DNA from: a virus
Taxonomy: Duplodnaviria > Caudoviricetes
Reading direction: 5' to 3' (one strand)
Virus record (IMG/VR): IMGVR_UViG_3300033141_004453
Span: 1-55,936 of that record
DNA length: 55,936 nt
In this document: piece after piece, positions 10,243-24,738 of the stretch
Position numbering within the stretch: the stretch's first letter is position 1
Layout of the letters: every line of letters starts with the position of its first letter
Made by a program: the position numbers and the translations under genes
Notes under the pieces: model-generated
Seen by the model: only the letters and a program-made list of their open reading frames with translations
Database searches by the model: none
What the model was told of the DNA's origin: nothing

Positions 10243-10534
10243 CTTCCTTTACCTCCTTTATAATATCTTCACATTTTCTACATACCCATTCTCCTTCTAC
10301 CATATCCAAATCTTCCTCATCAAACTCCCTCTTACAAATCCAACATTTCCTTTTCTCATTTTCCTCATTCACCACACCTTCCCAAAACATATCCCCTCTA
10401 TCTTTTATCACTCCTATAAACACCCTACACATCCTATCACTAATCTTATCAGGGTTAGTTAAAGCCTCTAATTCTTCTTTCGTTACTAACATTCCCAACA
10501 ACATCTTTCCTTTTTTCTTATCTTCCATTTTCAA
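10235..10534 (-). CDS. hypothetical protein with C-terminal zinc finger
   Basis: CWIC...CRKC. Confidence 0.6.
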   Translation of the reverse strand: MKMEDKKKGKMLLGMLVTKEELEALTNPDKISDRMCRVFIGVIKDRGDMFWEGVVNEENEKRKCWICKREFDEEDLDMVEGEWVCRKCEDIIKEVKEDE

Positions 10535-10773
10535 TCCTCATCAAACAACAAATCACAATCCACACACTCACAAACCCAACCTTCATAACCTACACTTCTT
10601 GTATAACATTTAGTTCCACATTTTGGGCAGATGTAACCCCAACCTTTCTCATCACTAAACCTCTCAAGAACATCTACCTCTCCATCACCACCTTCACTAA
10701 CACAAATAGGTGTTTCCAAATCTCTATTCACTTTCTTTACCATTTTCTCAAACTCACTTATTTTCTTTTGCAT
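10531..10773 (-). CDS. zinc-ribbon protein with N-terminal PIP-box-like motif
   Basis: MQKKISEF; CPKC...CVDC. Confidence 0.6.
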   Translation of the reverse strand: MQKKISEFEKMVKKVNRDLETPICVSEGGDGEVDVLERFSDEKGWGYICPKCGTKCYTRSVGYEGWVCECVDCDLLFDED

Positions 10774-11188: not shown

Positions 11189-12484
11189 TCAAATATCAAA
11201 GAAATCAGGTTGGTTAAATTTCAAATTCACCCAATAACTAACACCTTTTTCATTCATCTCCCTCAAATACTCACAATGTTTCTTCAACTCCTTTCCAAAC
11301 TTCCATATCTCATAAAGAGGGGATTTATTATTAATCAAACAATACTCACCATACCTTTCAAATAACTCCGCCTTACTTATCTTCTCCCCAATCTTCTCCC
11401 TACAACAATCCCTTACAAATGCATAAACAGGATTTTCTTTCTTCATAATGTCCCTTATTTGCTTCCAATCTTTTTTATAACTAAACTTTCCATTCCTCAA
11501 TAACCTCTTTAAACCTACTAAACTCCAATTCAAAATGCCAGATTTTTCATCTTCATCATTCACAATCTCTCTCCATATCTCTTTTTTTGTGTGTGAACTA
11601 CCATCATCAAACCTATTATCAAACTCCAAAATAATCCATCTATCAAAATATGCCTCATCACTATCATCTACACTTATGTAGGGGATTTTATTGGCCGCAA
11701 AAGTTAGTTTTGCGAAATTCCTAAACTTAAAACTATTTCCAAATTTAATCTCTCCATCAATCAAACTATCTCCTGTAAGTTCCTTAAAAACATTCACATC
11801 ACTAATGGCTTTTTCACTTAACTCATCACTAATGTTTGCATATTTGTTGTATAGTGTTGCTACTTGCCATTTACCCTCTGCCAATCTCTGCAAACTCTTA
11901 TTTGCACAATTTTCTTCCCCAATAAACCCCATAAGTATGTTTATGAATTGAGTTTTTCCTGTGTTTTTTGGTCCTTTACATACCATCGCTTTTTTGATGG
12001 GATATCTCCTATAAAGGTTGTAGCCGAACCATTCTTGCGCCACCCGAATATCATCTTCATACAACACTTCATTTAAAAATATTAGGAATTTGGGACAATT
12101 CTTCTTCCTATCAAATGCTACATCAATCTTACTCATAAATCTCCAATCTTTCTTATGAGGAGTAAGTTTCAAATTCTTAATATCTAACACCCCATTTTTA
12201 ACACAAATCAAATTCACTGGACAATTCCATAATCTTTCTCTTTCAATATATGTTTTTCTTGCTATTTTATTAACTACTTCATTAACAAAATGTGTAGAAC
12301 AAAATTCACCCATATGTTTTTCTGCCTCAATTTTAATAATCTCCTTCCCCTTTTCTTCATAAACCCCATCTAAATAAACATACATTTCATCTTTCTTTTC
12401 ACCATGAATTGTTTTAAAATTATATTTTGTGATTAGTTTATCAGCAAATTTCTGAACAATCTCACTCCAATTTTTCTTTTCCAT
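11189..12484 (-). CDS. D5/P4-type superfamily 3 helicase (no primase domain)
   Basis: NGVLD D5_N motif, Walker A GPKNTGKT, NISDE, FKELTGD, FAANKIP. Confidence 0.9.
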   Translation of the reverse strand: MEKKNWSEIVQKFADKLITKYNFKTIHGEKKDEMYVYLDGVYEEKGKEIIKIEAEKHMGEFCSTHFVNEVVNKIARKTYIERERLWNCPVNLICVKNGVLDIKNLKLTPHKKDWRFMSKIDVAFDRKKNCPKFLIFLNEVLYEDDIRVAQEWFGYNLYRRYPIKKAMVCKGPKNTGKTQFINILMGFIGEENCANKSLQRLAEGKWQVATLYNKYANISDELSEKAISDVNVFKELTGDSLIDGEIKFGNSFKFRNFAKLTFAANKIPYISVDDSDEAYFDRWIILEFDNRFDDGSSHTKKEIWREIVNDEDEKSGILNWSLVGLKRLLRNGKFSYKKDWKQIRDIMKKENPVYAFVRDCCREKIGEKISKAELFERYGEYCLINNKSPLYEIWKFGKELKKHCEYLREMNEKGVSYWVNLKFNQPDFFDI

Positions 12485-12605
12485 ATGCCTCTTTATAAAA
12501 TAGATTTTAAATTGAAATTATATTAAGTATATAAATATTTATTTAATTAAAACATATATATCAAACAATATAAATATTTAAATATTTAAGGTATTTTTAT
12601 GCAAT

Positions 12606-12857: not shown

Positions 12858-13982
12858 ATGATTGATATTGAGAGTTATATAAATAAATATTCAGAAAAAT
12901 TAGGGTTTAGTGTAGATGAGGTTAGAAAGGATTATGAAGAATTGTTAACAGAGGAAAAGGAAATCCACACAACTTTAACAGAGGAAGAACAAAAGACAAG
13001 GGCATTACAAAGATTGTCAGTGAAGTATAAGAGATTGTTAAGAAGTCCTGCAATTGGATTTGAAGGTATAGTTATGGGATTAGGTGATGTTGTGGATACT
13101 GTGGCAAGAATTAGAGAAAATGCCATAAAAATGTTTAAAGAAAATCCACAACAAGCAATTGCCAATGGATTAACAGATGATGAAGGAAATCCTTTAGACA
13201 CACGAGAAACATTTTCATCAGGAAAACCAAATCCATCTTATGGAAAACCATTGCCAGAACACAATTACTTACGAAATATTTTTGGTGTTTGCAATAGAAT
13301 AGGAGAGTCAGAACCTAAATTCTTTACAATGACCATCAATGGTGAAGTGGCTAAAACCAAAGATATTCCTTTATTCACTCCAGTTAAGTTTAGAGCAAAT
13401 GATAAGAGTGAGGAATCAAGTTCAACTTTCACATTAACACACTCAGTATTTACAAAATTTGAGAAAAGTGATATAAATCTTCCCAGTATAAGAGAGATTG
13501 TAAGTAAGTTTATAGGAATAACTAACCTTGCAGATTTACAACAATACCACACACAACACAAAGATGATTATAATAGAATAGTAGCTATAGAAGGTGATGT
13601 AAGTATGTTATTTCTAGAGCCAACAGCCACAGGAAGTAGAAGAATGATTATAGAAGATGGAAGTAAGTTATTAGAGGATTTAGAATCTCCTGGTATAACA
13701 TGTTGGATTCCAGCAGAAATGGATATTGATTTTTCTGAAGGAAGTAAGGTTATTGTTGTCGGGAGAACAACTCAAGGACTAAAGAGAGATGATAATGGAC
13801 AACAAACAGAAGAATTGGGGGATGTTATGTTGAATGTTTATGGAATCTACTGTTATCCTGAGTTCAAAATTAATCCTCCTATTAAAGAGATAACACAAGA
13901 AAATATTCCAGAAAATGTTGTGGAAGAAACTCCAAAAGTAGATACACCACAAGAAACTAAACCAGAAAAAGATAGTTGGTAA
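12858..13982 (+). CDS. probable single-stranded DNA-binding (RPA/OB-fold-like) protein
   Basis: 374 aa; OB-like C-terminal strands (GSKVIVVGRT); acidic tail ending in W; replication context. Confidence 0.5.
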   Translation: MIDIESYINKYSEKLGFSVDEVRKDYEELLTEEKEIHTTLTEEEQKTRALQRLSVKYKRLLRSPAIGFEGIVMGLGDVVDTVARIRENAIKMFKENPQQAIANGLTDDEGNPLDTRETFSSGKPNPSYGKPLPEHNYLRNIFGVCNRIGESEPKFFTMTINGEVAKTKDIPLFTPVKFRANDKSEESSSTFTLTHSVFTKFEKSDINLPSIREIVSKFIGITNLADLQQYHTQHKDDYNRIVAIEGDVSMLFLEPTATGSRRMIIEDGSKLLEDLESPGITCWIPAEMDIDFSEGSKVIVVGRTTQGLKRDDNGQQTEELGDVMLNVYGIYCYPEFKINPPIKEITQENIPENVVEETPKVDTPQETKPEKDSW

Positions 13983-13983
13983 A

Positions 13984-14766
13984 ATGAGTTGGGATGATTT
14001 AAAATCAAATAGCACAAAAAAACAAATAGTTGAACAAGTAGAAGATGTAAATATTGATTTTAAATCACTTCAAGAAATAGAGAAAAAACGAGGATACAAA
14101 ATAGGAATTTATGGAGATTTTGCCACAGGAAAAACTCATTTTGCACTAACTGCACCCGAACCTATTTTTATTATTGATACAGAAATGGGGGCAGCCCCCC
14201 TTTCTTTTAATTTTTTAAACAAGGATATTAAGGTATTAGATGTAGCAGAAAAAGATGGAGTGGAGAGTTATAAAAAAGTTGTAAAAGCAATTGAATTCAT
14301 AAGTGAGCAAGAGAAGATAGGAAGTGTGGTGATTGATAGTGTTAGTGATGTATGGGAATTTTGTCAGGAGTATGCAAAGGTAAAAATTTTCAATCTAAAA
14401 CCTTTAGATAGATTGAAACAACAATGGGATTGGGGTGTAATCAACAAATTATACTTGAAAATAATTTTAAAATTGTTGAAGTTAGATTGTAATTTGATTT
14501 TAACTGCAAGAGAGAATGAAATATATGCTAGTCCAGGACAACCTACAAATATGGTTAAACCAAAATGGCAAAAGAATACAGGTTTTTGGGTTGATTTTGT
14601 ATTGCATATGGGTAAAAGTCTAAACAAAAACAATGATGTAAACTTTTATATGGATATAGAGAAATCAAGACCCATAAGGAACATGATGGGAAAGAGATAT
14701 GAAAATATTGATTTTAATAAATTAATTGAAGAAATTGAAAAAAATAAAAATGATATTAAAAACTGA
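13984..14766 (+). CDS. AAA_24/Sak4-like P-loop ATPase (recombination)
   Basis: GDFATGKT, IIDTEMG, VVIDSVS, LILTARE. Confidence 0.8.
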   Translation: MSWDDLKSNSTKKQIVEQVEDVNIDFKSLQEIEKKRGYKIGIYGDFATGKTHFALTAPEPIFIIDTEMGAAPLSFNFLNKDIKVLDVAEKDGVESYKKVVKAIEFISEQEKIGSVVIDSVSDVWEFCQEYAKVKIFNLKPLDRLKQQWDWGVINKLYLKIILKLLKLDCNLILTARENEIYASPGQPTNMVKPKWQKNTGFWVDFVLHMGKSLNKNNDVNFYMDIEKSRPIRNMMGKRYENIDFNKLIEEIEKNKNDIKN

Positions 14767-15181
14767 GATTGAATTTGATGCTGCACATAGATTAGTTGGT
14801 TACCAAGGAAAGTGCTCACAACTTCATGGTCATAGATGGAAAGTAGAAATAAAGGTTTATGGAAATGATGAAGACCTTGATGATATAGGAATTATGTGGG
14901 ATTTTACAAATAGGAAGTATATAAAAGATATGTTTGACCATAAAGTCATACTTTCTAATCATCCTGATAATTTAGAATTGATTGAGGGAATTAAAAAGAT
15001 ATGTGGTAAGGATAGTGTTTGTATTATGGAACAGAACCCCACTGCTGAAAATTTATGCATTAAAATTTTGGAAGAATTAGTAGAAGGGAATAATAAATTA
15101 TTTTATAAAGTAAAAGTTTATGAGTCACCTGTTTCATATTGTGAAATAGATAATTTTGGTGGTATTGAAAATGAAGATTAA
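14750..15181 (+). CDS. queD: 6-carboxy-5,6,7,8-tetrahydropterin synthase
   Basis: FDAAHRL...C..LHGH.W, DF, FDH, NPTAENL, VYES. Confidence 0.93.
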   Translation: MILKTEIEFDAAHRLVGYQGKCSQLHGHRWKVEIKVYGNDEDLDDIGIMWDFTNRKYIKDMFDHKVILSNHPDNLELIEGIKKICGKDSVCIMEQNPTAENLCIKILEELVEGNNKLFYKVKVYESPVSYCEIDNFGGIENED

Positions 15182-15830
15182 TGAAATATTTAGAAGTATT
15201 CAAGGAGAAAGTAGTTATGTTGGACTACCTTGTATATTCATAAGACTAACTGGTTGTAATTTGAGATGTAAGTATTGTGATACAACTTACGCCTATAATG
15301 AAGGGAAAGAGACGAGTGTGATAAAAATAGTAGAAGAAGTGACGAAGTTGTATAGAGAGGGAGATATTATTGAGATTACTGGTGGTGAACCACTACTCCA
15401 AAAAGAAGAGTTAAAAAATTTAATAGATGAGTTAGCATTAATATCTTCTACAATTTTAATTGAGACAAATGGAAGTATTGTGCTTCCAAAGAATGAAAGT
15501 TCAGATAACACGTGGGATTATGTAACCTGGATTATGGACTGGAAATTGGGTTCAAGTGAAGAGAGTGAAAAGATGGAAAGTATTAATTTAGATAGATTAA
15601 ATACAACTGATGAATTAAAGTTTGTGATTGGAAATAGTAGAGATTATGATGAGATGATAAGAGTATTAAAAAAATATAGACCTAATTGCAAGATTTTGGT
15701 ATCTACAGTTTGGGATAATGAAAATTTAAGGAAGGAAGTTGTGAGTAGGATGTTAAAGGATAATTTAAAGGCAAGATTTCAAGTTCAACTACATAAAATA
15801 GTTTGGGATAAAAATAAGAGGGGAGTATGA
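15171..15830 (+). CDS. queE: 7-carboxy-7-deazaguanine synthase (radical SAM)
   Basis: EIF.SIQGE, IRLTGCNLRCKYCDT, TGGEP, IETNG, QLHK. Confidence 0.93.
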   Translation: MKINEIFRSIQGESSYVGLPCIFIRLTGCNLRCKYCDTTYAYNEGKETSVIKIVEEVTKLYREGDIIEITGGEPLLQKEELKNLIDELALISSTILIETNGSIVLPKNESSDNTWDYVTWIMDWKLGSSEESEKMESINLDRLNTTDELKFVIGNSRDYDEMIRVLKKYRPNCKILVSTVWDNENLRKEVVSRMLKDNLKARFQVQLHKIVWDKNKRGV

Positions 15831-16228
15831 AAAAAGAAAAAATTAGTTGGGAGAAATTTAATGAAGGAATAAACATATTAACAAAAAAAATTAAAAAATC
15901 AAAATTCAAAGCAAATGTAATTTTGGCTTTACCAAGAGGTGGCTTACCTATTGCAACTGCTCTTGCTCACAAACTAGGAATAGAGAGGATTGAAATTAAT
16001 GTAGAAGTATTAGATAACTCTGCAATATTTGATAAAACAATCAATACATCAAATGTTTTAATTGTTGATGATGTAAGTGATACAGGAACTACTATTTTAA
16101 AAAATTATCCTTCAAAACATGTATGTAAGATAGCAACACTACACTACAAACCAACATCAAGAGTTAGACCTGATTTTTTTGCTTACATAACAAATAATTG
16201 GATTCAATATCCTTGGGAGGTAAAATGA
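15827..16228 (+). CDS. type I purine phosphoribosyltransferase (Gpt/HGPRT-like)
   Basis: PRGG, LIVDDVSDTGTT PRPP loop, WIQYPWE. Confidence 0.88.
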   Translation: MKKEKISWEKFNEGINILTKKIKKSKFKANVILALPRGGLPIATALAHKLGIERIEINVEVLDNSAIFDKTINTSNVLIVDDVSDTGTTILKNYPSKHVCKIATLHYKPTSRVRPDFFAYITNNWIQYPWEVK

Positions 16229-16938
16229 TTAAGATAGCAAGCAAATTGCCACAATTCAAATTACTTATGAATATAATAAAAGATGTAAATACAGAAACAG
16301 ATTTTATTTTTTCAGCTAATGAACTACTTGTAAAAGTTATCAATTCTAGTTCTACTTCTATTGTTAGTGTTGTTTTGAATAAAAGTGGATTTGAAATTTA
16401 TCAAGTTGAGGAAGAACAAATTTTTACATTAAATACTGAATTAGTTTGTAAGATTTTAAGTAAGTTTGATAAAGAAGTTTGTATTGATTTTGAAGATGAG
16501 TGTATTAAATTTTATAATGGAAGGAAAGAGTATATGTTGAATTATTTTGTTGGAAAGAAAGATGAAAGACCATTACCTACAATTGACTACCAATCAAAAT
16601 GGATTGTAAAAAGTCAAGAATTAATTGATAAATTAAAAAGAATGAGTGATTTTGGTTATCTATGTTGTTTGGAGTATAAAGAAGGTAGATTTCTAATTAA
16701 GATAAAGTCAGATATAGTTAAGGGACAAGAAGAGTTTACAAATTGTAACAAAATAGAGAGTAGAGATGTTGCTGGATGGTATGATTTGAGTTATTTTGAA
16801 TGTTTATTTGGTTTATCAGATATCTTTGAAGAAGTAAAGTTAGGATTTGGTGATGAACAACCTTGTATTATCAAAAATAAAAATAGTTGGTTGGATTTTT
16901 GTTGGTTATTAGCACCAAGAGTGAGGGAAGATGAATGA
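16225..16938 (+). CDS. pcn: PCNA sliding clamp
   Basis: about 237 aa; PCNA-like pattern (F..Y.V.E, LCKIL-like helix, YDL.Y, C-terminal LLAPRV). Confidence 0.88.
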   Translation: MIKIASKLPQFKLLMNIIKDVNTETDFIFSANELLVKVINSSSTSIVSVVLNKSGFEIYQVEEEQIFTLNTELVCKILSKFDKEVCIDFEDECIKFYNGRKEYMLNYFVGKKDERPLPTIDYQSKWIVKSQELIDKLKRMSDFGYLCCLEYKEGRFLIKIKSDIVKGQEEFTNCNKIESRDVAGWYDLSYFECLFGLSDIFEEVKLGFGDEQPCIIKNKNSWLDFCWLLAPRVREDE

Positions 16939-17515
16939 CAAAAAAATAGAAAGTTTATGGAAAGAGATTTTAGAGTTAATTGGAGAAGATACAGAAAGAG
17001 AAGGAATAAAAGCAACTCCAAAAAGAATAGCAAGAATGTATAAAAATATTTTTTATGGATACAATAAAAAATTAGTTGTTATGAATGAAGAAGAAAGAAG
17101 TAAGAATAATGAGAAAGATATTATTCCAATCACAATATTCAAGAATGAAAATAAAGAGATGCTTATAAGAGATACTGTATTTACATCATTTTGTGAGCAT
17201 CACATTGTTCCGTTCTCAGGAAAAGCCTGGGTAGGAATAATACCAGATAAAAAATTGTTAGGTATGAATAAAATAGATAAGATTGTAAAATATTTTGCAG
17301 CAAGATTACAAATACAAGAAAGAATGACACAACAAATTGCAGACTGGATTTGGGAGAATATTGAACCATTAGGAATTATTGTTATTATTAGAGCAGACCA
17401 TTTCTGCGCAAGGTTACAGAATGACAATGGATGGTTTACTACCTCTGCTATAAAAGGAGTATTTAAGAAAAATGAACCAAAAAACGAATTTTTAAAATTA
17501 ATGGAGTTAAAATGA
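16931..17515 (+). CDS. folE: GTP cyclohydrolase I
   Basis: REG...TPKR.A, SFCEHH..PF.G, RLQIQER.T, HFC, TTS. Confidence 0.93.
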   Translation: MNDKKIESLWKEILELIGEDTEREGIKATPKRIARMYKNIFYGYNKKLVVMNEEERSKNNEKDIIPITIFKNENKEMLIRDTVFTSFCEHHIVPFSGKAWVGIIPDKKLLGMNKIDKIVKYFAARLQIQERMTQQIADWIWENIEPLGIIVIIRADHFCARLQNDNGWFTTSAIKGVFKKNEPKNEFLKLMELK

Positions 17516-17859
17516 ATATGATATGGATAACAACAAGTTTTGAAGGATTTCATAAATATCCAAATGCGCCAAAAGAAGTTGAGTTCTTAAAAAATAAACA
17601 CAGACATATTTTCTACATAAAGGTCTGGATAGAAGTATTTCATAATGATAGAGATATAGAATTTATTTTGTTTAAAAGATTTGTTGATACAATTATAAAA
17701 GATAGTAATTTTGATTTTGAGAGTTGTGAGATGATTAGTGATGATTTATATACCCTAATAAATGAAAAATATCCAAACAGAGAAATTTGGATTGAAGTTA
17801 GTGAAGATAAAGAAAACGGTTCATTTAAAAAATATGTGAAAGGAGGTGATATGAAATGA
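17512..17859 (+). CDS. second QueD-like T-fold protein, resembling DpdL (proposed CDG decarboxylase)
   Basis: FEGFH.YP.AP, LKNKHRHIF (LxxxHRHxF), SCEM, VSED.ENG. Confidence 0.7.
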   Translation: MNMIWITTSFEGFHKYPNAPKEVEFLKNKHRHIFYIKVWIEVFHNDRDIEFILFKRFVDTIIKDSNFDFESCEMISDDLYTLINEKYPNREIWIEVSEDKENGSFKKYVKGGDMK

Positions 17860-18089
17860 AAAATCCATGTAAAAAAGGAAGTAGAGCATTTGATATTTTT
17901 GAAAGTTTAATGACAGAAAAAACAATTCCTGAAGTGATAGATGAAATAGTAATGAAAAGAGAAACAGAAAAAAGAAGTAATATAGTTAATCAAGTAAATA
18001 CAATAATCAGAGAGCTTAAAAAAGGTAGATGGGAAGGATTAACATTAACTGAAAACAATGGCAGATATAAAATAACTGAGGTCAATTGA
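17856..18089 (+). CDS. small putative winged-helix protein
   Basis: 77 aa; helix-helix-helix plus beta hairpin pattern; strong SD. Confidence 0.45.
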   Translation: MKNPCKKGSRAFDIFESLMTEKTIPEVIDEIVMKRETEKRSNIVNQVNTIIRELKKGRWEGLTLTENNGRYKITEVN

Positions 18090-18542
18090 ATGAAGTTAAC
18101 AAAGAGAGTTTGTAAATCATCAAATTTTTGGATTGGAAGAGAAGTAGAAGGTAGATTTAAAGGGCTAAGAACATTGTTTGTTAAAGGTAATCAAAATACA
18201 GACCAAATCAAAAATTTGATAGCTCAAGAATCTCCAAATATGTTATATTTTGGTGCAGGTAATCAAAGTAAAGTAACAGATTTTAATGTAATAAGAAATT
18301 TTTTAGAGAAACTACCTGTAACTTTGGAGATTTCAGAAAAAAGATTAAAGACACTTCCAGAAAATATTATTAAACATAAGAACTTACATTTAGTTATCAC
18401 ATTTAAAAATAAATATTTAACAAAATTAAAACCTACTGATAGTATTAAAGTAGAAGATAATAGTAGTGTTTATGTATCAACTTTAGAATGTATGTATAAA
18501 ACAAATAAAAAAACAGATTATAAGGAGGATAAAGAAATATGA
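18090..18542 (+). CDS. conserved-looking hypothetical protein in the deazaguanine cluster
   Basis: G.EVEG...G..TLFV and LYFGAG motifs; function unknown. Confidence 0.55.
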   Translation: MKLTKRVCKSSNFWIGREVEGRFKGLRTLFVKGNQNTDQIKNLIAQESPNMLYFGAGNQSKVTDFNVIRNFLEKLPVTLEISEKRLKTLPENIIKHKNLHLVITFKNKYLTKLKPTDSIKVEDNSSVYVSTLECMYKTNKKTDYKEDKEI

Positions 18543-19711
18543 AAACAATTTGGTACTTTCCATTAGAAATTGTAAAAAGTAGATATACTAAACAGTTATG
18601 TAACTACTGGATACCGGATGGTATAAATAAATGTAAACAACATAATGATAAATTTGAGATAATAAAAGGCCAAAGTATTGATACTAATATTAAAGTAGGT
18701 CAGGTCTTGGATGCGACAGGACGAGGTATTTATAGTTTAACACAAGTTTCTAATTTTTTAAAAAAAATTAGAGCAGGCGATGTAAAAGATGGTGATGTTC
18801 TATATATACAGGATTTTTGGACACCAGGAATTGAAGCGATATTTTATGCTGTTGATTTGTACAATATAAAATTACATATCTACTCAATGGTTCATGCCCA
18901 AAGTGTTGATAAATATGATTTTACATATCCAATGAGAAAATGGATGAGACCTATTGAACTGGGCTATGATAAAGCACATCAATATGGTGGATTATTTGTT
19001 GCTTCAAGTATTCATAAGAAACAACTACGCAGTGCAGGATTTACTTCACCTATTCATGTTGTTAGTTTGCCTTTTGGTATTGATGAAGTTAAAGAACGTA
19101 TTAAAAATATTCATAGAAATACAGAAAAAGCAATCATATTTTCATCAAGACTTGATAAAGAAAAAAATCCAGAGTTTATGCTTAAAGTTGCAAAAAAATT
19201 TCTTGATAAATATAAGGATTGGAAATTTTATGTTACAACTTCAGGAAAGGAAATCAGAAGTAATCAAAAAGGTATAATCAAAAAAATAAGAAATTTTTCT
19301 AAAAAAAATAAAAGATTTATAATCAAAGAAGGTATTTCAAAAAATGAATATTACAAACTTCTTTGTAAATGTAAGATACAACTTAATACCTCATTACAAG
19401 ATTATGTTAGTTGGACTGTAATTGAGGCAAGTATTTGTGAATGTGATTTATGTTATCCAAATTTTAGAAGTTTTCCTGAATTTATGCCAAAAGATAGAAT
19501 GTATAGACCCTGGAATGTTTCTGATGTGTTAAGAACAATAAAAGATTGTATAGATAATCCAAAACAACACAAATGGATAGCAGAGATTTCAGATTATGGA
19601 AGATTGAAGGAATGTAAAATCATATGTAATGGTAGTAAAAAAGAAATAAATATATGGAAAGAAAAAAATAGATTTATAAAGAAAAAATGCAATTTAAAAT
19701 CCCAAAATTAA
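18539..19711 (+). CDS. GT-B (GT4-like) glycosyltransferase
   Basis: FSSRLDKEKNP, SLQDYVSWTVIEA, YPNFRSFPE. Confidence 0.8.
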   Translation: MKTIWYFPLEIVKSRYTKQLCNYWIPDGINKCKQHNDKFEIIKGQSIDTNIKVGQVLDATGRGIYSLTQVSNFLKKIRAGDVKDGDVLYIQDFWTPGIEAIFYAVDLYNIKLHIYSMVHAQSVDKYDFTYPMRKWMRPIELGYDKAHQYGGLFVASSIHKKQLRSAGFTSPIHVVSLPFGIDEVKERIKNIHRNTEKAIIFSSRLDKEKNPEFMLKVAKKFLDKYKDWKFYVTTSGKEIRSNQKGIIKKIRNFSKKNKRFIIKEGISKNEYYKLLCKCKIQLNTSLQDYVSWTVIEASICECDLCYPNFRSFPEFMPKDRMYRPWNVSDVLRTIKDCIDNPKQHKWIAEISDYGRLKECKIICNGSKKEINIWKEKNRFIKKKCNLKSQN

Positions 19712-20832
19712 AAAGTAGAAATATTCCTGTATGTAGTATAAGTATAGTAACTTCAGATACAAGTTGGTGGAGAAAATCATCACCATTTGTTTATCCAAAC
19801 TTGTTAGTGAATCTCATGGACTGTAATAAAAAAGAGCAGATAGATAAGATAAAAGAAGATACAGATAAGGACCTATTTTTATTAACAGATAGTGGTGGAT
19901 TTCAAGTTGGAGCAGGAACATGCTCATTAGACTGGAAAGAATCATTGTTAAGACAAATAAAAATTGGTGCAAGTAAAATATTTTCATTTGATACTCCAAC
20001 TATTAAAAAAAGGTCCACAACTACATTAGTTAATTTTACTTATATGGATAATGAAGAAGCATTTCATGTTATAGAAGAGAATTTAAAAGTTGCATTAAAA
20101 CAATCAGAGTTTTTAAAAACAAACTATCCTAATGAATTTGAAAAATTTTGTTACATTTTACATGGAAAATCTATGGAACAAATTGATTTTAACTTTACTT
20201 TATTTGATAAATACTTAGGAAGTATAGAAAACTATTCAAAATATTTTCCAGGAGGTATTGTTTATGGACTAAAGCAAGATGATTTGTTATATATGACAAT
20301 AGCAGCAAGACACGCATATGAAAATTTTATCAAAAAAGGAATTTATGTCCATTTTTTAGGTATGGGAAGTCCATTTAGAATGATATGTTTAATTAGAAAT
20401 AAAATAACAACATTTGATTCTTCAAGAGCCTTACAAGGAGTAAGAGCAAACCAGTTTGTTAATCCGTTTAATATATCTAACTTTATCCAATTTAAATCAG
20501 ATTGTAGTCAATTTACTAGAAATTTCTGTATGTGTCCAGCATGTTACAATATAAACTATGAAACCTTATTAAAACAAAAAGATATTCAAAAAATCAGACA
20601 AGCACTTGTAAATCATAATGTTTGGTGGTACACAATGATAAATATTTTTTTAGATGCTTTGTCAGAAAAAGAATATACTAAAATGGTATTAAAAAATCTC
20701 AAAGTAAGTAAAGAAACAATAAGAAGCCTTGAATTTTGTGACTATGCCGACCAAGTAGGATTTGATACTGCTTATAAAAAATATAAACACTATCTTAAAA
20801 AAGATGAAACTAAACAGAAAAAAATATTCTAA
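19687..20832 (+). CDS. dpdA: TGT-fold guanine transglycosylase (DpdA-like, probably DNA-modifying)
   Basis: DSGGFQ, FDTP, ILHG, VHFLG, FDSS, zinc site CMCPAC...HN. Confidence 0.8.
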   Translation: MQFKIPKLKSRNIPVCSISIVTSDTSWWRKSSPFVYPNLLVNLMDCNKKEQIDKIKEDTDKDLFLLTDSGGFQVGAGTCSLDWKESLLRQIKIGASKIFSFDTPTIKKRSTTTLVNFTYMDNEEAFHVIEENLKVALKQSEFLKTNYPNEFEKFCYILHGKSMEQIDFNFTLFDKYLGSIENYSKYFPGGIVYGLKQDDLLYMTIAARHAYENFIKKGIYVHFLGMGSPFRMICLIRNKITTFDSSRALQGVRANQFVNPFNISNFIQFKSDCSQFTRNFCMCPACYNINYETLLKQKDIQKIRQALVNHNVWWYTMINIFLDALSEKEYTKMVLKNLKVSKETIRSLEFCDYADQVGFDTAYKKYKHYLKKDETKQKKIF

Positions 20833-20841
20833 ATCATATAC

Positions 20842-23094
20842 ATGATAAAAGTAGAAAATAAAGGAAGTGATATATTTGAATTTGGTAGGCAAGGAAATGT
20901 TCCATACATCAAGAAACACAAATTTCAACCATATTTCTTCTATGAAGACACTACAGGCAATTTCAAAACTATAGATGGAAAGAATGCTACAAAACTTGTC
21001 TTAAAAAATCCAAAAGAAGTGCCAGTAGTAAGAGAACAATATAACAAGACATATGAAAGTGATATTGTTTATACAAATAGATTCATCATTGATAATTATA
21101 AAATTATAAAACAAGACAAAATAAGAATTTGTTATATAGATATTGAAATAGCAAGAACAAAGAATGGTTATGAATCAGCAGTAAAAGCTACAAATCCTAT
21201 ATTATGTATTGGGACTTATGATAATTTTGATAAAGAATACAAAACTTTTTGCATAAACAAAACTCATAGAGAAGAAAAAGAAATGATGAAAGATTTTATC
21301 AAATGGTTTGTTAAGAAAGACCCAGATTTAGTTGTTGCTTGGAATGGAGATAATTTTGATTTTCCCTTCCTTATAAATCGTATGAAGAACTTAGGATTAA
21401 ATCCCAATTTATTAGCACGACAAAGTAGTGAGTTTAGAGGTGAAGTTAAAATTGTTGGTGATAGAAATTTTATTAAGATAGAGGGAAGAGTAATGTTTGA
21501 TTTAATGTACGCTTATAGAAAAATGATAAGTGGTGAAGGAAGAGAAAGTTGGAGTTTAGATTATATATGTAAGTATGAAGGTGTTGGTCAAAAAGAGAAG
21601 TATAAAGGTGAATTAGATGATTTATTTAAGAATAATTTAGAGAAATTTATATCATATAATAAAAGAGATGTTGAACTACTAGTGTTGTTAGATGAAAAAT
21701 TACATATAGTTGATTTTTTTGATAGTGTTAGGAGGATGTGTTTTTGTCAGTTTGAGGATGTATTTATGAATAGTAAGATTGCAGATTGTCTTTGTCTAAA
21801 GAAAGCAAAGGAGTTAAATGTTGTACTACCAAGTTGCAAGAGAAATAAAAGAGAAAATATAAAAGGTGGATTTGTTCAAGATAGTGTTCCAAAATTATAT
21901 AAAAATGTAGTTTGTATGGATATGAAATCTTTGTATCCTTCAATAATGATTGGATTTAACACTTCATATGAAACAATACTTGAAAAGAAGGAAAAAAATT
22001 GTATAGATGTTTATGGAAAGTATTTTTATAAAAGAGAAAGAGGAATTATTCCATCTATTGTTAAACCTCTTTTAACAAAAAGAAACGAAATAAAGAAAAT
22101 CATGAAAAATATAGATAGAAATAGTAAGGAATTTAAATCACTTTACATGGAACAATATACTTTAAAAGTTATAGCAAATAGTTTTTATGGTGTTATGGGA
22201 TTTCCTTTGTTTAGATTGTTTAAAAGTGATGTTGCTAATTCAATTACCTTTATTGCAAGACAAATTATTATGGAAGTTAGTAAGTGGTTTAAAGAAAAAG
22301 GATTGAAAGTTATTTATGGCGACACAGATAGTGTATTTATTGAAATGGGAAATCTAACTAAAAATGATTTTGTAAAATTAAATCATGAAATCAATAATTA
22401 TTTTAAAGATTACTTCAAAAAATTTGGAGTTAGTGATGAGAACAATATCTTTCAGTTAGAGTTTGAAAAAGTGTTTAAAAGTATTTTTTTTAAGAAGAAA
22501 ACTGATGGAAAAGGAGCTAAAAAAAGATATGCAGGAAGAGTAATTTGGGAGAATGGAAAAGAAGTGGAAAAATTTATTACTGTTGGATTTGAAAGTAAAA
22601 GGTCTGATACATCAACAATTGGAAGAAAGTTTATAAGTGATGTTTTGAAAATGATTTGTTATGGTAGTAAAAAAAAGGAGATTGATAAATTTATAAGTGA
22701 ATTTAAAAAAGAACTAAAGAAACAAGCTATTGAAGATATTGCTATACCTATTGGAATTTCAAAACCTTTAGAGAATTATAAAAATGTTATTCATATCAGA
22801 GCCGCAAGAAATGCTAATAGATTACATAATGCACAGATACAATCTGGAGATAAAATTAAATATGTTTACATAATACATAAAGATATGAATGTTATAGCAT
22901 TTAAGAGTAGTAGTTGGATGTGGGATGGATATAAAATAGACTGGAAAATGATGGAAAAGAGAATTGTTGATATGAAAATTCAACCAATTTATGAAAGTTT
23001 AGGATGGAACTATCCTTGGGAAATATTTATGCCAACAAAAAAGAAAAAACAGATTAAATTTGAAGAGCAAATGAAACAAAAGTCGTTATGGTAG
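20842..23094 (+). CDS. polB: family B DNA polymerase
   Basis: Exo DIE, WNGDNFD, YNKRD; Pol DMKSLYPS, KVIANSFYG, YGDTDS, KKRYAG. Confidence 0.97.
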   Translation: MIKVENKGSDIFEFGRQGNVPYIKKHKFQPYFFYEDTTGNFKTIDGKNATKLVLKNPKEVPVVREQYNKTYESDIVYTNRFIIDNYKIIKQDKIRICYIDIEIARTKNGYESAVKATNPILCIGTYDNFDKEYKTFCINKTHREEKEMMKDFIKWFVKKDPDLVVAWNGDNFDFPFLINRMKNLGLNPNLLARQSSEFRGEVKIVGDRNFIKIEGRVMFDLMYAYRKMISGEGRESWSLDYICKYEGVGQKEKYKGELDDLFKNNLEKFISYNKRDVELLVLLDEKLHIVDFFDSVRRMCFCQFEDVFMNSKIADCLCLKKAKELNVVLPSCKRNKRENIKGGFVQDSVPKLYKNVVCMDMKSLYPSIMIGFNTSYETILEKKEKNCIDVYGKYFYKRERGIIPSIVKPLLTKRNEIKKIMKNIDRNSKEFKSLYMEQYTLKVIANSFYGVMGFPLFRLFKSDVANSITFIARQIIMEVSKWFKEKGLKVIYGDTDSVFIEMGNLTKNDFVKLNHEINNYFKDYFKKFGVSDENNIFQLEFEKVFKSIFFKKKTDGKGAKKRYAGRVIWENGKEVEKFITVGFESKRSDTSTIGRKFISDVLKMICYGSKKKEIDKFISEFKKELKKQAIEDIAIPIGISKPLENYKNVIHIRAARNANRLHNAQIQSGDKIKYVYIIHKDMNVIAFKSSSWMWDGYKIDWKMMEKRIVDMKIQPIYESLGWNYPWEIFMPTKKKKQIKFEEQMKQKSLW

Positions 23095-23774
23095 ATAATT
23101 TATGGTTGAGCAAAACCAGTATACTAACATATTTAAGATGCCCTTATAAATGGAAACTTCAGTTTATTGATAAGAAAGAGGTAGAAAAACCACCTTCAAT
23201 GGAGAGAGGAATTCACATCCATAAGTGTATAGAAAACTTTTATCAAAATTTGAATATAGAGAATGATGAAATTAAAAATTGTGATGTTCCAGAGAAATTT
23301 TTAAAATTTGAAAATAAAAGGTTAAGAGCTTGTAAGAAGAAAAAGGATTTTATGAAATATTTTAAACCTCTCTATCAAGAGTTAAAGTTGATTGATGAAA
23401 AGGAGAAAATAAAAGGAATTGTGGACGCTATATTCATAAATCCGGAGAATGATGAGTATATTGTGATAGATTGGAAGTCAGGAAAATCAAGATTTAGTGA
23501 GTTAAGTAAGTATAGGTTGGAATTGTCAATTTATAAAATGTTGGTAGATAGTAGTGGAATATTGGACAAACCAGTAAGATATTGGGGGATAGTGTTTGTT
23601 GATGAAGGAAGATTATTTTTTGAAAAAGTGAAAAAGAGAAGTATGAGAAACACCCAAAAAGTTTTAGCAAGTGTTAGAGAAAAAATACAAAAAGGGGAAT
23701 TTGAATGTAAAGTGGGGATATTATGTAAATGGTGTCCGTATATTAAATATTGTAGGGAGTTTAAAGATGTTTAA
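23088..23774 (+). CDS. Cas4/AddB-like PD-(D/E)xK exonuclease with Fe-S cysteines
   Basis: YLRCP, RG..IH, GIVD, IDWKSG, CKWCPY...C. Confidence 0.88.
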   Translation: MVDNLWLSKTSILTYLRCPYKWKLQFIDKKEVEKPPSMERGIHIHKCIENFYQNLNIENDEIKNCDVPEKFLKFENKRLRACKKKKDFMKYFKPLYQELKLIDEKEKIKGIVDAIFINPENDEYIVIDWKSGKSRFSELSKYRLELSIYKMLVDSSGILDKPVRYWGIVFVDEGRLFFEKVKKRSMRNTQKVLASVREKIQKGEFECKVGILCKWCPYIKYCREFKDV

Positions 23775-24738
23775 TACTTTTCCAAGAGAAGTAGGACCAC
23801 CAAGAAAAATTGTGAATAATTTAAAAGAATGGTTGGATTTTGTAAATATGCATAATGGTAAAAAGAAGGCAATATATACATCAATATATATGTTTGAAAA
23901 TATCTTTACAAACTCTCCAAAAAGACCTGATTATGAGTCAGCAGTTGTAGATAAGTTGTTTTTTGATTTTGATGATAAGATTTGTAATGCGTGGGAGGAA
24001 TGTAATAAACTTCACCAGGAGTGTTTGAATTTAAATCTAAAACACATGATAATTATGAGTGGGAGAGGATATCATCTGTATATTTTCTGTAAGGAAGAAA
24101 AATTAGATAACAAAAAAGAAGCAATAAGAGGAGGACAATTATTTTTTGTAAATAAATTGAACTTAACTACAGATATGCAAATTATTGGTAATGTTGCTCA
24201 GATGGCAAGAGTTCCGAACACATACCACTTAAAAGCAAGGAGATTTTGTATTCCGCTAACACAAACTCAATTTGAAAAGGGAGATAGATATGTAAAAAAT
24301 TTAGCACTAAAACAAAATTTTGTTTGTGGTTATATTGGTGATAGATTGTTTGAATTAAGGAAATTTGATAAAGAAAATGATTCAGAGGAGATTAGATTAA
24401 GTGTAGACATACCCTTAGACTTAAATACAAAGGATTTAACAAAGGATTTTCCTAATTGTATATTAGATTTAATTAAAAAAAGAAAATTAGGATGGAAAGA
24501 GAGGTATATAGTAATTTTGTTTATGAAAGAATCTGGTTACACAATTCAAGAATGTTATGATGTTTTGAAGAAATATCTAACACCTCAAAAATTACATCAT
24601 TGTATTGCAGAAGAAAAACAACTCCAATATCTATATAAGAGAGATGATTTAGTTTTTCCAACATGTGAAGATTTACAAAGAAAAGGATATTGTAAAAAAA
24701 AGTGTAGTAGATTTGGAAAATTAATATACAAACAATAA
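23767..24738 (+). CDS. archaeo-eukaryotic primase catalytic domain fused to a PriL/PriX-like C-terminal domain
   Basis: FFDFD, SGRGYHLY, RVPNT; C-terminal FPNCI...C...C. Confidence 0.82.
   Translation: MFNTFPREVGPPRKIVNNLKEWLDFVNMHNGKKKAIYTSIYMFENIFTNSPKRPDYESAVVDKLFFDFDDKICNAWEECNKLHQECLNLNLKHMIIMSGRGYHLYIFCKEEKLDNKKEAIRGGQLFFVNKLNLTTDMQIIGNVAQMARVPNTYHLKARRFCIPLTQTQFEKGDRYVKNLALKQNFVCGYIGDRLFELRKFDKENDSEEIRLSVDIPLDLNTKDLTKDFPNCILDLIKKRKLGWKERYIVILFMKESGYTIQECYDVLKKYLTPQKLHHCIAEEKQLQYLYKRDDLVFPTCEDLQRKGYCKKKCSRFGKLIYKQ

Follow-up and report, generated by a model that had tools for sequence, protein, structure and literature searches.

The window analysed here, the whole virus record IMGVR_UViG_3300033141_004453 of IMG/VR (55,936 bases; Caudoviricetes), encodes a DpdA-like DNA/tRNA-guanine transglycosylase directly ahead of a family B DNA polymerase (PolB). 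The two proteins end in similar short peptides, KQKKIF in the transglycosylase and KQKSLW in the polymerase, and the virus carries its own sliding clamp, PCNA, inside an operon for 7-deazaguanine synthesis. Judged from sequence comparison, the transglycosylase is probably a client of the sliding clamp that is tethered like the polymerase, with a tail that would act as a polymerase-type clamp-docking peptide. We infer that the two proteins have the clamp as their common partner, that the enzyme acts on DNA, and that modification is coupled to replication.

Matching C-terminal tails of the transglycosylase and the polymerase

The transglycosylase gene (dpdA, 19687..20832, plus strand) encodes a protein of 381 residues with the fold of tRNA-guanine transglycosylases (TGT), recognised from its homologue family and a structure model. 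Model and homologue comparison together delimit a C-terminal tail of residues 370-381 (LKKDETKQKKIF; 20794..20829, plus strand). The proposed docking motif, KQKKIF (K376-F381), closes the open reading frame (ORF) at 20812-20829 and is followed by the stop codon at 20830-20832. In the AlphaFold2 (AF2) model the last helix covers residues 359-369, no secondary structure lies beyond residue 369, and the predicted local distance difference test score (pLDDT) is 56 over residues 371-380 and below 50 for 379-381. By this model the tail is a flexible, disordered terminal peptide. PolB (750 residues; 20842..23094, plus strand; Pfam DNA_pol_B 1.8e-56 and DNA_pol_B_exo1 4.1e-17) starts 10 nt past the dpdA stop. 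It ends ...EEQMKQKSLW, with the motif KQKSLW at 23074..23091 and the stop at 23092-23094. Both reading frames were checked on the DNA.

An end of the form Qxx[LIMV][FWY] is found in exactly two of the 85 coding-strand ORFs of at least 60 residues, namely the DpdA-like protein and PolB. The expectation from composition is 0.061 per 85 ORFs, which gives a probability of 1.8e-3 for two or more, and only 10 of 5000 tail shuffles reached two or more motif ends. When all 240 six-frame ORFs of at least 40 residues are considered, the motif occurs in DpdA, PolB and one 48-residue ORF on the wrong strand only. In both tails, as in PCNA-interacting peptides (PIP), position 1 is Q and position 4 is aliphatic. 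The preliminary description of this DNA had listed four strings as clamp-type motifs, the two tails together with a helicase end NQPDFFDI and an ORF start MQKKISEF, and all four are indeed present in the sequence.

Conservation of the tails among homologues

That description had named conservation of the tail in homologues as a check, and the terminal motif proved to be conserved. Among 45 DpdA proteins of 38-58% identity, the window's own included, 38 end Q..[LIMV][FWY], and Q377 is conserved at 90% or more in the DpdA alignment. The remaining seven comprise one ending QSSIFNF, four that keep Q..L without an aromatic residue, one without Q (NKSLFNF) and one with an unrelated tail. On the polymerase side, 45 of the best 120 listed relatives end Q..[LIMV][FWY] and 25 of the 120 have Qxx[LIMV]xx[FWY] near the end. 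In the related loci with a complete PolB, every PolB ends Q..LW or a close variant. Further, a second, shorter PolB type (26-33% identity), which stands beside dpdA in some relatives, also ends Q..LW.

The short form alternates with canonical Qxxhxx-aromatic tails in both the DpdA and the PolB families. Distant DpdA representatives end, for example, KQKTLGGYY, KQKSLSSW or KQGGIFDF, and since both short and canonical PolB tails are found among homologues, the two forms replace each other at the same place. In the related loci, counted with four contigs appearing twice, 47 of 919 ORFs of at least 50 residues end in the motif: 24 are DpdA, 16 are PolB, three are homologues of the window protein orf374 and four are others (a phosphoribosyltransferase with an extension, a 108-residue ORF and two short wrong-strand ORFs).

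Apart from its tail, PolB varies in gene organisation. The PolB of one relative is split into ORFs of 821 and 295 residues (L050 5212-8540; L060 880-4208), and the relatives P0208 and P0213 carry intein, HNH and Vsr domains inside PolB.

Co-variation of the tails in distant DpdA lineages

Beyond the close homologues, 81 full-length distant DpdA representatives (25-29% identity) were compared. A hydrophobic-aromatic or Q-type tail is present in 43 of the 81, against 7 of 83 other ORFs of the window. A sub-alignment of these distant proteins was scanned over viral contigs and the best 80 of 534 relatives were examined; two other sub-alignments found no relatives in viral contigs. The tails of the distant loci are of another kind, and here too DpdA and PolB of one genome match each other, in pairs such as KKINNLFKF/KKINSLFKF, SEMNEFF/SDIDEFF, NKFFTF/AKFFSFGK, GGIFDF/KDIFSFGK and LDMWNDI/MDKWLQ (DpdA first).

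The pairing was evaluated by permutation over 61 loci with both genes, of which three PolB ends are possibly incomplete or split. Clustering at 60% DpdA identity gave 24 lineages, none of which was dropped. Summed over the lineages, DpdA tails scored 445 for similarity to the PolB tail of their own lineage, compared with 313 +/- 25 for permuted pairs, and none of 20000 permutations reached this value; the statistic ignores relatedness, and the independent tail changes are fewer than 24. With the window clade collapsed to a single lineage (n=15), the values were 326 and 217 +/- 20, again with 0 of 20000. At least five distinct tail classes are common to DpdA and PolB. Two clients that dock at a single co-evolving site, proposed to be the sliding clamp, would be expected to co-vary in this way.

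In the distant clade, candidate clamp genes also stand next to dpdA. In locus L089, the ORF right after dpdA matches the polymerase processivity factor phrog_223 (1.9e-7) and the next ORF matches the clamp loader phrog_168 (5.3e-83). The positionally equivalent ORF of L123 had no PHROG match, and was still used as the second jackhmmer seed for clamp homologues because a clamp loader follows it. Where 2 kb or more of sequence follows dpdA (79 loci, many of them redundant), 52 loci have a clamp homologue no more than 300 nt past the stop. By these sequence matches, dpdA of the distant clade appears usually to abut a gp45-type clamp gene.

A 230-residue ORF of L123 (8235-8927), which has no PHROG match, ends EKINNFFKF like the DpdA (KKINNLFKF) and PolB (KKINSLFKF) of the same phage. 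Its ending suggests that it may be a further clamp client.

The viral clamp and the docking computation

PCNA lies on the plus strand at 16225..16938 (the ORF opens at 16198 and homologues start at M10) and matches Pfam PCNA_N at 9e-6. A word search for PCNA relatives returned only the protein itself, for which reason the alignment was built from the related loci; tblastn in cultured phages gave no match. In the resulting profile of 14 relatives, positions 9-235 match full-length PCNA structures of both archaea and eukaryotes, with E-values down to 1.4e-25. The gene sits between QueD, QueE and a phosphoribosyltransferase on one side and FolE on the other, in one plus-strand string of genes with the glycosyltransferase, DpdA and PolB. 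The earlier claim that PCNA is encoded inside the deazaguanine operon is therefore confirmed, in the window and beyond it: in 9 of 9 de-duplicated loci whose upstream DNA spans 4.5 kb or more, PCNA lies 0.7-3.6 kb upstream of dpdA. When loci with at least 4.0 kb are admitted, it is upstream in 12 of 13, L050 being the exception.

Co-folding the peptide with the viral PCNA, a check that the preliminary description had called for, was carried out with the DpdA tail. DpdA residues 342-381 (35-sequence alignment) were folded together with PCNA (14-sequence alignment), alongside three controls. The interface score ipSAE was 0.42 (runs 0.42, 0.28 and 0.50) and that of the best control 0.00; agreement between the runs covers 73% or more of the contacts, with a partner pLDDT of 53 or higher. 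Scores that pass the mark used are seen for 58 of 80 solved complexes and for 2 of 110 mismatched pairs, and the range at 0.60 or under holds only 7 of the 80 solved complexes together with both passing mismatches. Further, the pass may reflect likeness, because PCNA-peptide complexes are common among solved structures. The prediction hence exceeds its controls and amounts to weak support. The central earlier claim, that the base-exchange enzyme rides the viral clamp, is upheld in part: the conserved, disordered polymerase-type tail, the PCNA gene in the operon and the tail co-variation argue for it, and the co-fold lends weak support.

Identity of the transglycosylase and its likely substrate

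On its own, the window protein has no Pfam (E <=0.01), PHROG or Protein Data Bank (PDB) sequence match. Family-level evidence is clearer: PF01702 TGT is matched by 32 of the 35 homologues in the alignment (best E 1.9e-11), and there are NCBIfam matches to TgtA (2.4e-6) and tgt_general, both below cut-off. The AF2 model (pLDDT 88.5, predicted template modelling (TM) score 0.88) places tRNA-guanine transglycosylases first in a Foldseek comparison with the PDB (E 1.5e-8, probability 1.00, TM-score 0.55-0.61). Matches in BFVD include viral TGT/DpdA-like proteins of Achromobacter phage Motura, Vibrio phage nt-1, Cellulophaga phage phiST and a Sulfolobales virus. D68-S-G-G-F-Q73, D244, C281/C283/C286 and H310 are invariant in the 35 sequences; by analogy with bacterial TGT, we take these to be the catalytic Asp loop (DSGGFQ), the second Asp and the CxCxxC...H zinc site. 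The TGT fold, the catalytic and zinc residues and a viral 7-deazaguanine gene neighbourhood (FolE, QueD, QueE) are all found, and sequence family and model agree that the enzyme belongs to the TGT superfamily.

Placement within the DpdA family is less specific. PMC10516641, in the part consulted, defines bDpdA and DpdA1-4 and gives DUF6610 (PF20314) as the mark of DpdA4, an archaeal-virus subfamily. The window protein has no Pfam match and so lacks PF20314, which is also not among the 22 families matched at E <=1 by the 35 homologues. No close relative was found in cultured phages, where the best match has 21% identity at E 2e-4. Assignment to DpdA1-4 was dropped on these two grounds, and the enzyme is called DpdA-like without a subfamily. 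Gene context and the polymerase-type tail suggest that its substrate is DNA rather than tRNA.

Other viral contigs (L005-L025; for example L005 8953-10485) encode TGT-like proteins of about 510 residues whose C-terminal tails are conserved but of a different kind, being acidic (DLDESRLDQLEQQQ) and devoid of aromatic residues. The approximately 510-residue TGT-like proteins of L005-L033 were left out of the analysis as a separate family with acidic tails.

Proposed mechanism

In the mechanism we propose, the last 12 residues of DpdA would be flexible and end in KQKKIF, which like KQKSLW of PolB would be a shortened PIP-type peptide, and both tails would insert into the same hydrophobic pocket of the viral PCNA trimer. 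A homotrimeric PCNA has three such pockets, so that one ring could hold both PolB and DpdA; alternatively, DpdA could use rings left behind on the new duplex. DpdA would slide along freshly made double-stranded DNA and swap guanines for a 7-deazaguanine base supplied by FolE, QueD and QueE. Modification might in this way be limited to newly made viral DNA, which is plausible only if viral PCNA marks viral forks.

Bacterial DpdA requires DpdB. A broader version of the proposal, which we put forward tentatively, is that clamp tethering is general to viral DNA transglycosylases of DpdA type within a large and mostly uncultured clade, and has been re-invented or retuned for each type of clamp. The clamp would there replace DpdB and make insertion processive and replication-coupled, with Q-type tails accompanying PCNA in archaeal-type viruses and FF-type tails accompanying gp45-like clamps in T4-like phages.

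Several observations weigh against clamp tethering. The tails had been described as terminal Qxx(L/I)-aromatic PIP motifs, but they are not a canonical PIP box: the aromatic pair of positions 7 and 8 is missing, and a single aromatic residue stands at position 5, where the chain ends. The tails are similar and not identical, as DpdA consistently ends in F and PolB in W. Close homologues ending KQKSLDI, KQQELLI, GQSTLA and KQRTLK have no terminal aromatic residue, P0039 has a quite different tail, and 38 of the 81 distant representatives are without the motif by the pattern used. To these must be added the relatedness that the permutation statistic ignores. In the distant viral records, all of them fragments, Pfam clamp models matched none (PCNA_N 0 of 4; DNA_PPF 0 of 5, its control also matching nowhere). 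No AAA-type match to a clamp loader was found in the window, and therefore loading of PCNA would depend on the host. Finally, the sole docking computation is weak, and the protein, with its putative DNA substrate, cannot be placed in an experimentally tested DpdA subfamily.

Alternative explanations

The shared tail could dock DpdA and PolB to a replisome partner other than the clamp, be it the RPA-like orf374 protein, the primase-helicase or some factor of the host. Co-variation shows a shared, co-evolving partner without naming it, and the weak PCNA co-fold and the distant records in which Pfam models found no clamp leave room for such a partner. We nevertheless consider it unlikely. Q-x-x-h-aromatic at the extreme C-terminus of PolB is the classical position of a clamp peptide, the short tail alternates with the canonical Qxxhxx-aromatic form in both families, and linkage of dpdA to a clamp gene is seen with two clamp types that are unrelated.

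A clamp of the host might be the partner instead, either a host PCNA or, if the host is bacterial, a beta clamp, leaving another role for the viral PCNA. The missing clamp loader fits this, as do the resemblance of the short Qxx[LI]F to the beta-clamp pentapeptide and the single Bacteroidetes bin among the PolB relatives. PolB relatives at 49-56% identity come from NCBI bins named Woesearchaeota, Aenigmarchaeota and Nanoarchaeota, with Bacteroidetes named once, and the DpdA alignment found no relative in genome contigs that would hint at a host. Against cultured viruses, the best PolB E-values (1e-44 to 1e-47, at 25-26% identity) belong to haloarchaeal tailed viruses, and the primase of archaeo-eukaryotic type (AEP), D5 helicase, PolB and PCNA are all of archaeal type. 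By these sequence affinities the host is likely archaeal, possibly of the DPANN group. With the viral PCNA kept in the operon in 9 of 9 loci as well, docking to a host clamp is quite unlikely.

A viral enzyme that modifies tRNA, with a tail serving stability, oligomerisation or regulation, would account for the nearest solved folds being tRNA TGTs and for the sub-threshold NCBIfam match being TgtA, and no tested DpdA subfamily could be assigned to the protein. Such a role is very unlikely for a gene that lies 10 nt upstream of PolB in a replication module and whose tail matches and co-varies with that of the polymerase. Moreover, every virus with 7-deazaguanine synthesis genes examined in the consulted part of PMC10516641 encodes a DpdA that acts on DNA.

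That the resemblance is a functionless by-product of lysine-rich, low-G+C composition (lysine makes up 9.8% of residues in a genome of about 30% G+C) is hardly credible in view of the shuffles and the composition-based expectation, and is already contradicted by a motif kept across homologues of 38-58% identity, which are too divergent to be near-copies of a single genome.

Gene content of the window

The window virus is a nearly complete tailed virus of archaeal type, with PolB, PCNA, an AEP primase and a D5 helicase. The record is 93% complete according to CheckV, and the virus is taken to be tailed because genes for a portal, a major head protein, a tape-measure protein and a minor tail protein are present. 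No tRNA genes were found in the window. A plus-strand replication and modification module spans 12858-24738. It runs from orf374 through an AAA_24 ATPase, QueD (PTPS), QueE (radical SAM), a purine phosphoribosyltransferase, PCNA and FolE to three small unknown ORFs, a GT1 glycosyltransferase, the TGT-like protein, PolB, a PD-(D/E)XK nuclease and an AEP-like primase.

Within the deazaguanine operon, all on the plus strand, QueD (14726-15181; Pfam PTPS 3e-24) is followed by QueE (15156-15830; Pfam Radical_SAM 3.6e-13), a phosphoribosyltransferase of xanthine/guanine type (15827..16228; Pfam Pribosyltran 2.7e-13; NCBIfam xanthine phosphoribosyltransferase 7.1e-14, below cut-off) and, after PCNA, FolE (GTP cyclohydrolase I; 16931..17515; Pfam GTP_cyclohydroI 2.1e-49). 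The phosphoribosyltransferase gene, which is next to PCNA inside the operon, is conserved in most relatives; its product might salvage the guanine freed by base exchange or activate a deazapurine base. QueC is absent from the window even though FolE, QueD and QueE are encoded, and because of this absence the inserted base may be a derivative of 7-carboxy-7-deazaguanine, possibly glycosylated, or preQ0 from the host. As a separate observation, the QueE of one relative (L002 4738-6150) has 470 residues with two matching parts about 250 residues apart, which suggests an intein or insertion.

Three small ORFs, orf115 (phrog_17812), orf77 and orf150 (17512-18542, plus strand), lie between FolE and the GT1 glycosyltransferase (18539-19711, plus strand), which is directly upstream of dpdA. 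In relatives the glycosyltransferase is more conserved (68-74% identity) than DpdA (53-57%), with orf150 at 48%, and it travels with two of the unknown ORFs, orf115 and orf150.

At the head of the module, orf374 (12858..13982, plus strand) is a candidate RPA-like, OB-fold, single-stranded DNA-binding protein. It has no Pfam match; its Atlas feature matches, which serve as leads only, score 0.88-0.90 and all fall in archaeal OB/RPA clusters. The protein has a long acidic, proline-rich tail ending in W, and two homologues (L003 2528-3667; L048 857-1885) end in the canonical-looking QTKVDEW and QTQLSSW. These endings make orf374 a possible third clamp client.

The two further strings that had been proposed as clamp motifs fared less well. 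The D5-type primase-helicase (11189..12484; Pfam DUF5906, D5_N and Pox_D5), encoded on the minus strand opposite to the replication module, ends NQPDFFDI. Its single homologue found (G003, 45% identity) ends IKIFGV, no relatives were found in the scan of viral contigs, and the helicase tail was rejected as a PIP motif since it is not conserved. The 80-residue Cys-rich ORF that starts MQKKISEF (10531..10773, minus strand) does contain the literal motif, at a level not above chance: an N-terminal Qxxhxx-aromatic in at least one of 85 ORFs arises in 28% of shuffles. As no homologue was found either in the related loci or beside the G003 helicase, this candidate too was set aside.

Other parts of the window deserve mention. 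An AT-rich intergenic stretch (12485-12605) separates the helicase from the divergently oriented replication module. It carries two ATATAAATATTTA-type repeats spaced by 39 nt together with an imperfect inverted repeat of 28 nt, and a switch in GC skew at about 12.5 kb coincides with it; the region could hold divergent promoters or an origin. At the other end of the module, the AEP-like primase (23671-24738) and all its relatives end [VIL]IYK(K/Q) just past a Cys-rich motif, an ending that may be structural. Between 28748 and 40993 lie three glycosyltransferases, a methyltransferase/glycosyltransferase fusion, a radical SAM protein and unknown ORFs. This glycan or modification module takes up about 12 kb in a virus of 56 kb, an unusually large share.

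Comparison with known systems

The DNA modification proposed above would belong to a group of systems in which 7-deazaguanine levels of viral genomes range from 0.1% to 100% of guanines. Insertion is called post-replicative in the part of PMC10516641 consulted. How a viral DpdA finds and processes whole genomes would have an answer in a polymerase-type docking tail, namely recruitment to the replisome clamp. If true, clamp tethering would explain why DpdA3 and DpdA4, which could not be tested in Escherichia coli (PMC10516641, same part), fail when expressed there alone. The cognate clamp would then be the missing partner to supply when the reaction is reconstituted in vitro or modified DNA is made enzymatically. 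Clamp docking further suggests how viruses could confine hypermodification to their own replicating DNA, and a base-exchange enzyme would join the clamp "tool belt".

The established PIP-box clients of PCNA include archaeal and eukaryotic PolB, FEN1, ligase, RNase HII and uracil-DNA glycosylase, with the consensus Qxx[LIM]xx[FY][FY]. The window tails resemble them in the Q at position 1, the aliphatic residue at position 4, a nearby aromatic residue, basic flanks, a disordered extreme C-terminus and a cognate PCNA in the genome. They differ in that the aromatic residue at position 5 ends the chain and the pair at positions 7 and 8 is lacking, and in that the client is a base-exchange enzyme; we know of no base-exchange enzyme described as a PCNA client. 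DNMT1 and UNG2 provide eukaryotic examples of PCNA-tethered, replication-coupled DNA modification or repair. As in these, the window would combine a DNA-modifying enzyme with a polymerase-type docking peptide, and hence action on newly replicated duplex. However, the reaction here would be exchange of a whole base, guanine for 7-deazaguanine, instead of methyl transfer or uracil excision, and the enzyme is viral and has a viral clamp at hand.

Proteins that bind the bacterial beta clamp carry motifs of the QL[SD]LF type, likewise a five-residue Q-x-x-L-F at a protein terminus. Unlike those systems, the window virus encodes PCNA and its host is probably an archaeon; no dnaN-type clamp was seen in the window, in which no dnaN-directed search was made.

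With the DpdA family (bDpdA with its DpdB ATPase, and DpdA1-DpdA4; part of PMC10516641), the window enzyme shares the TGT fold, the DSGGFQ-type loop, CxCxxC...H and the neighbours FolE, QueD and QueE. It stands apart in having no close cultured relative, no DUF6610 match and no QueC. The consulted part of PMC10516641 contains no mention of a clamp-type tail or a clamp, and no published link of DpdA or deazaguanine to PCNA or another clamp was found in the literature searched, mostly by title or abstract.

A further parallel comes from phages with clamps of another kind. The gp43 polymerase of T4 and RB69 binds the gp45 clamp through its C-terminal tail. In the distant loci L085-L154, DpdA and polymerase likewise share a terminal peptide and dpdA is linked to a clamp gene. 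These phages have FF-type tails, a gp45-type clamp and a loader of their own, whereas the window has a Q-type tail, PCNA and no loader. As far as the sequences indicate, the window would thus add a PCNA/Q-type version of a putative clamp tail shared by DpdA and polymerase, beside the FF-type/gp45-type version of the distant loci.

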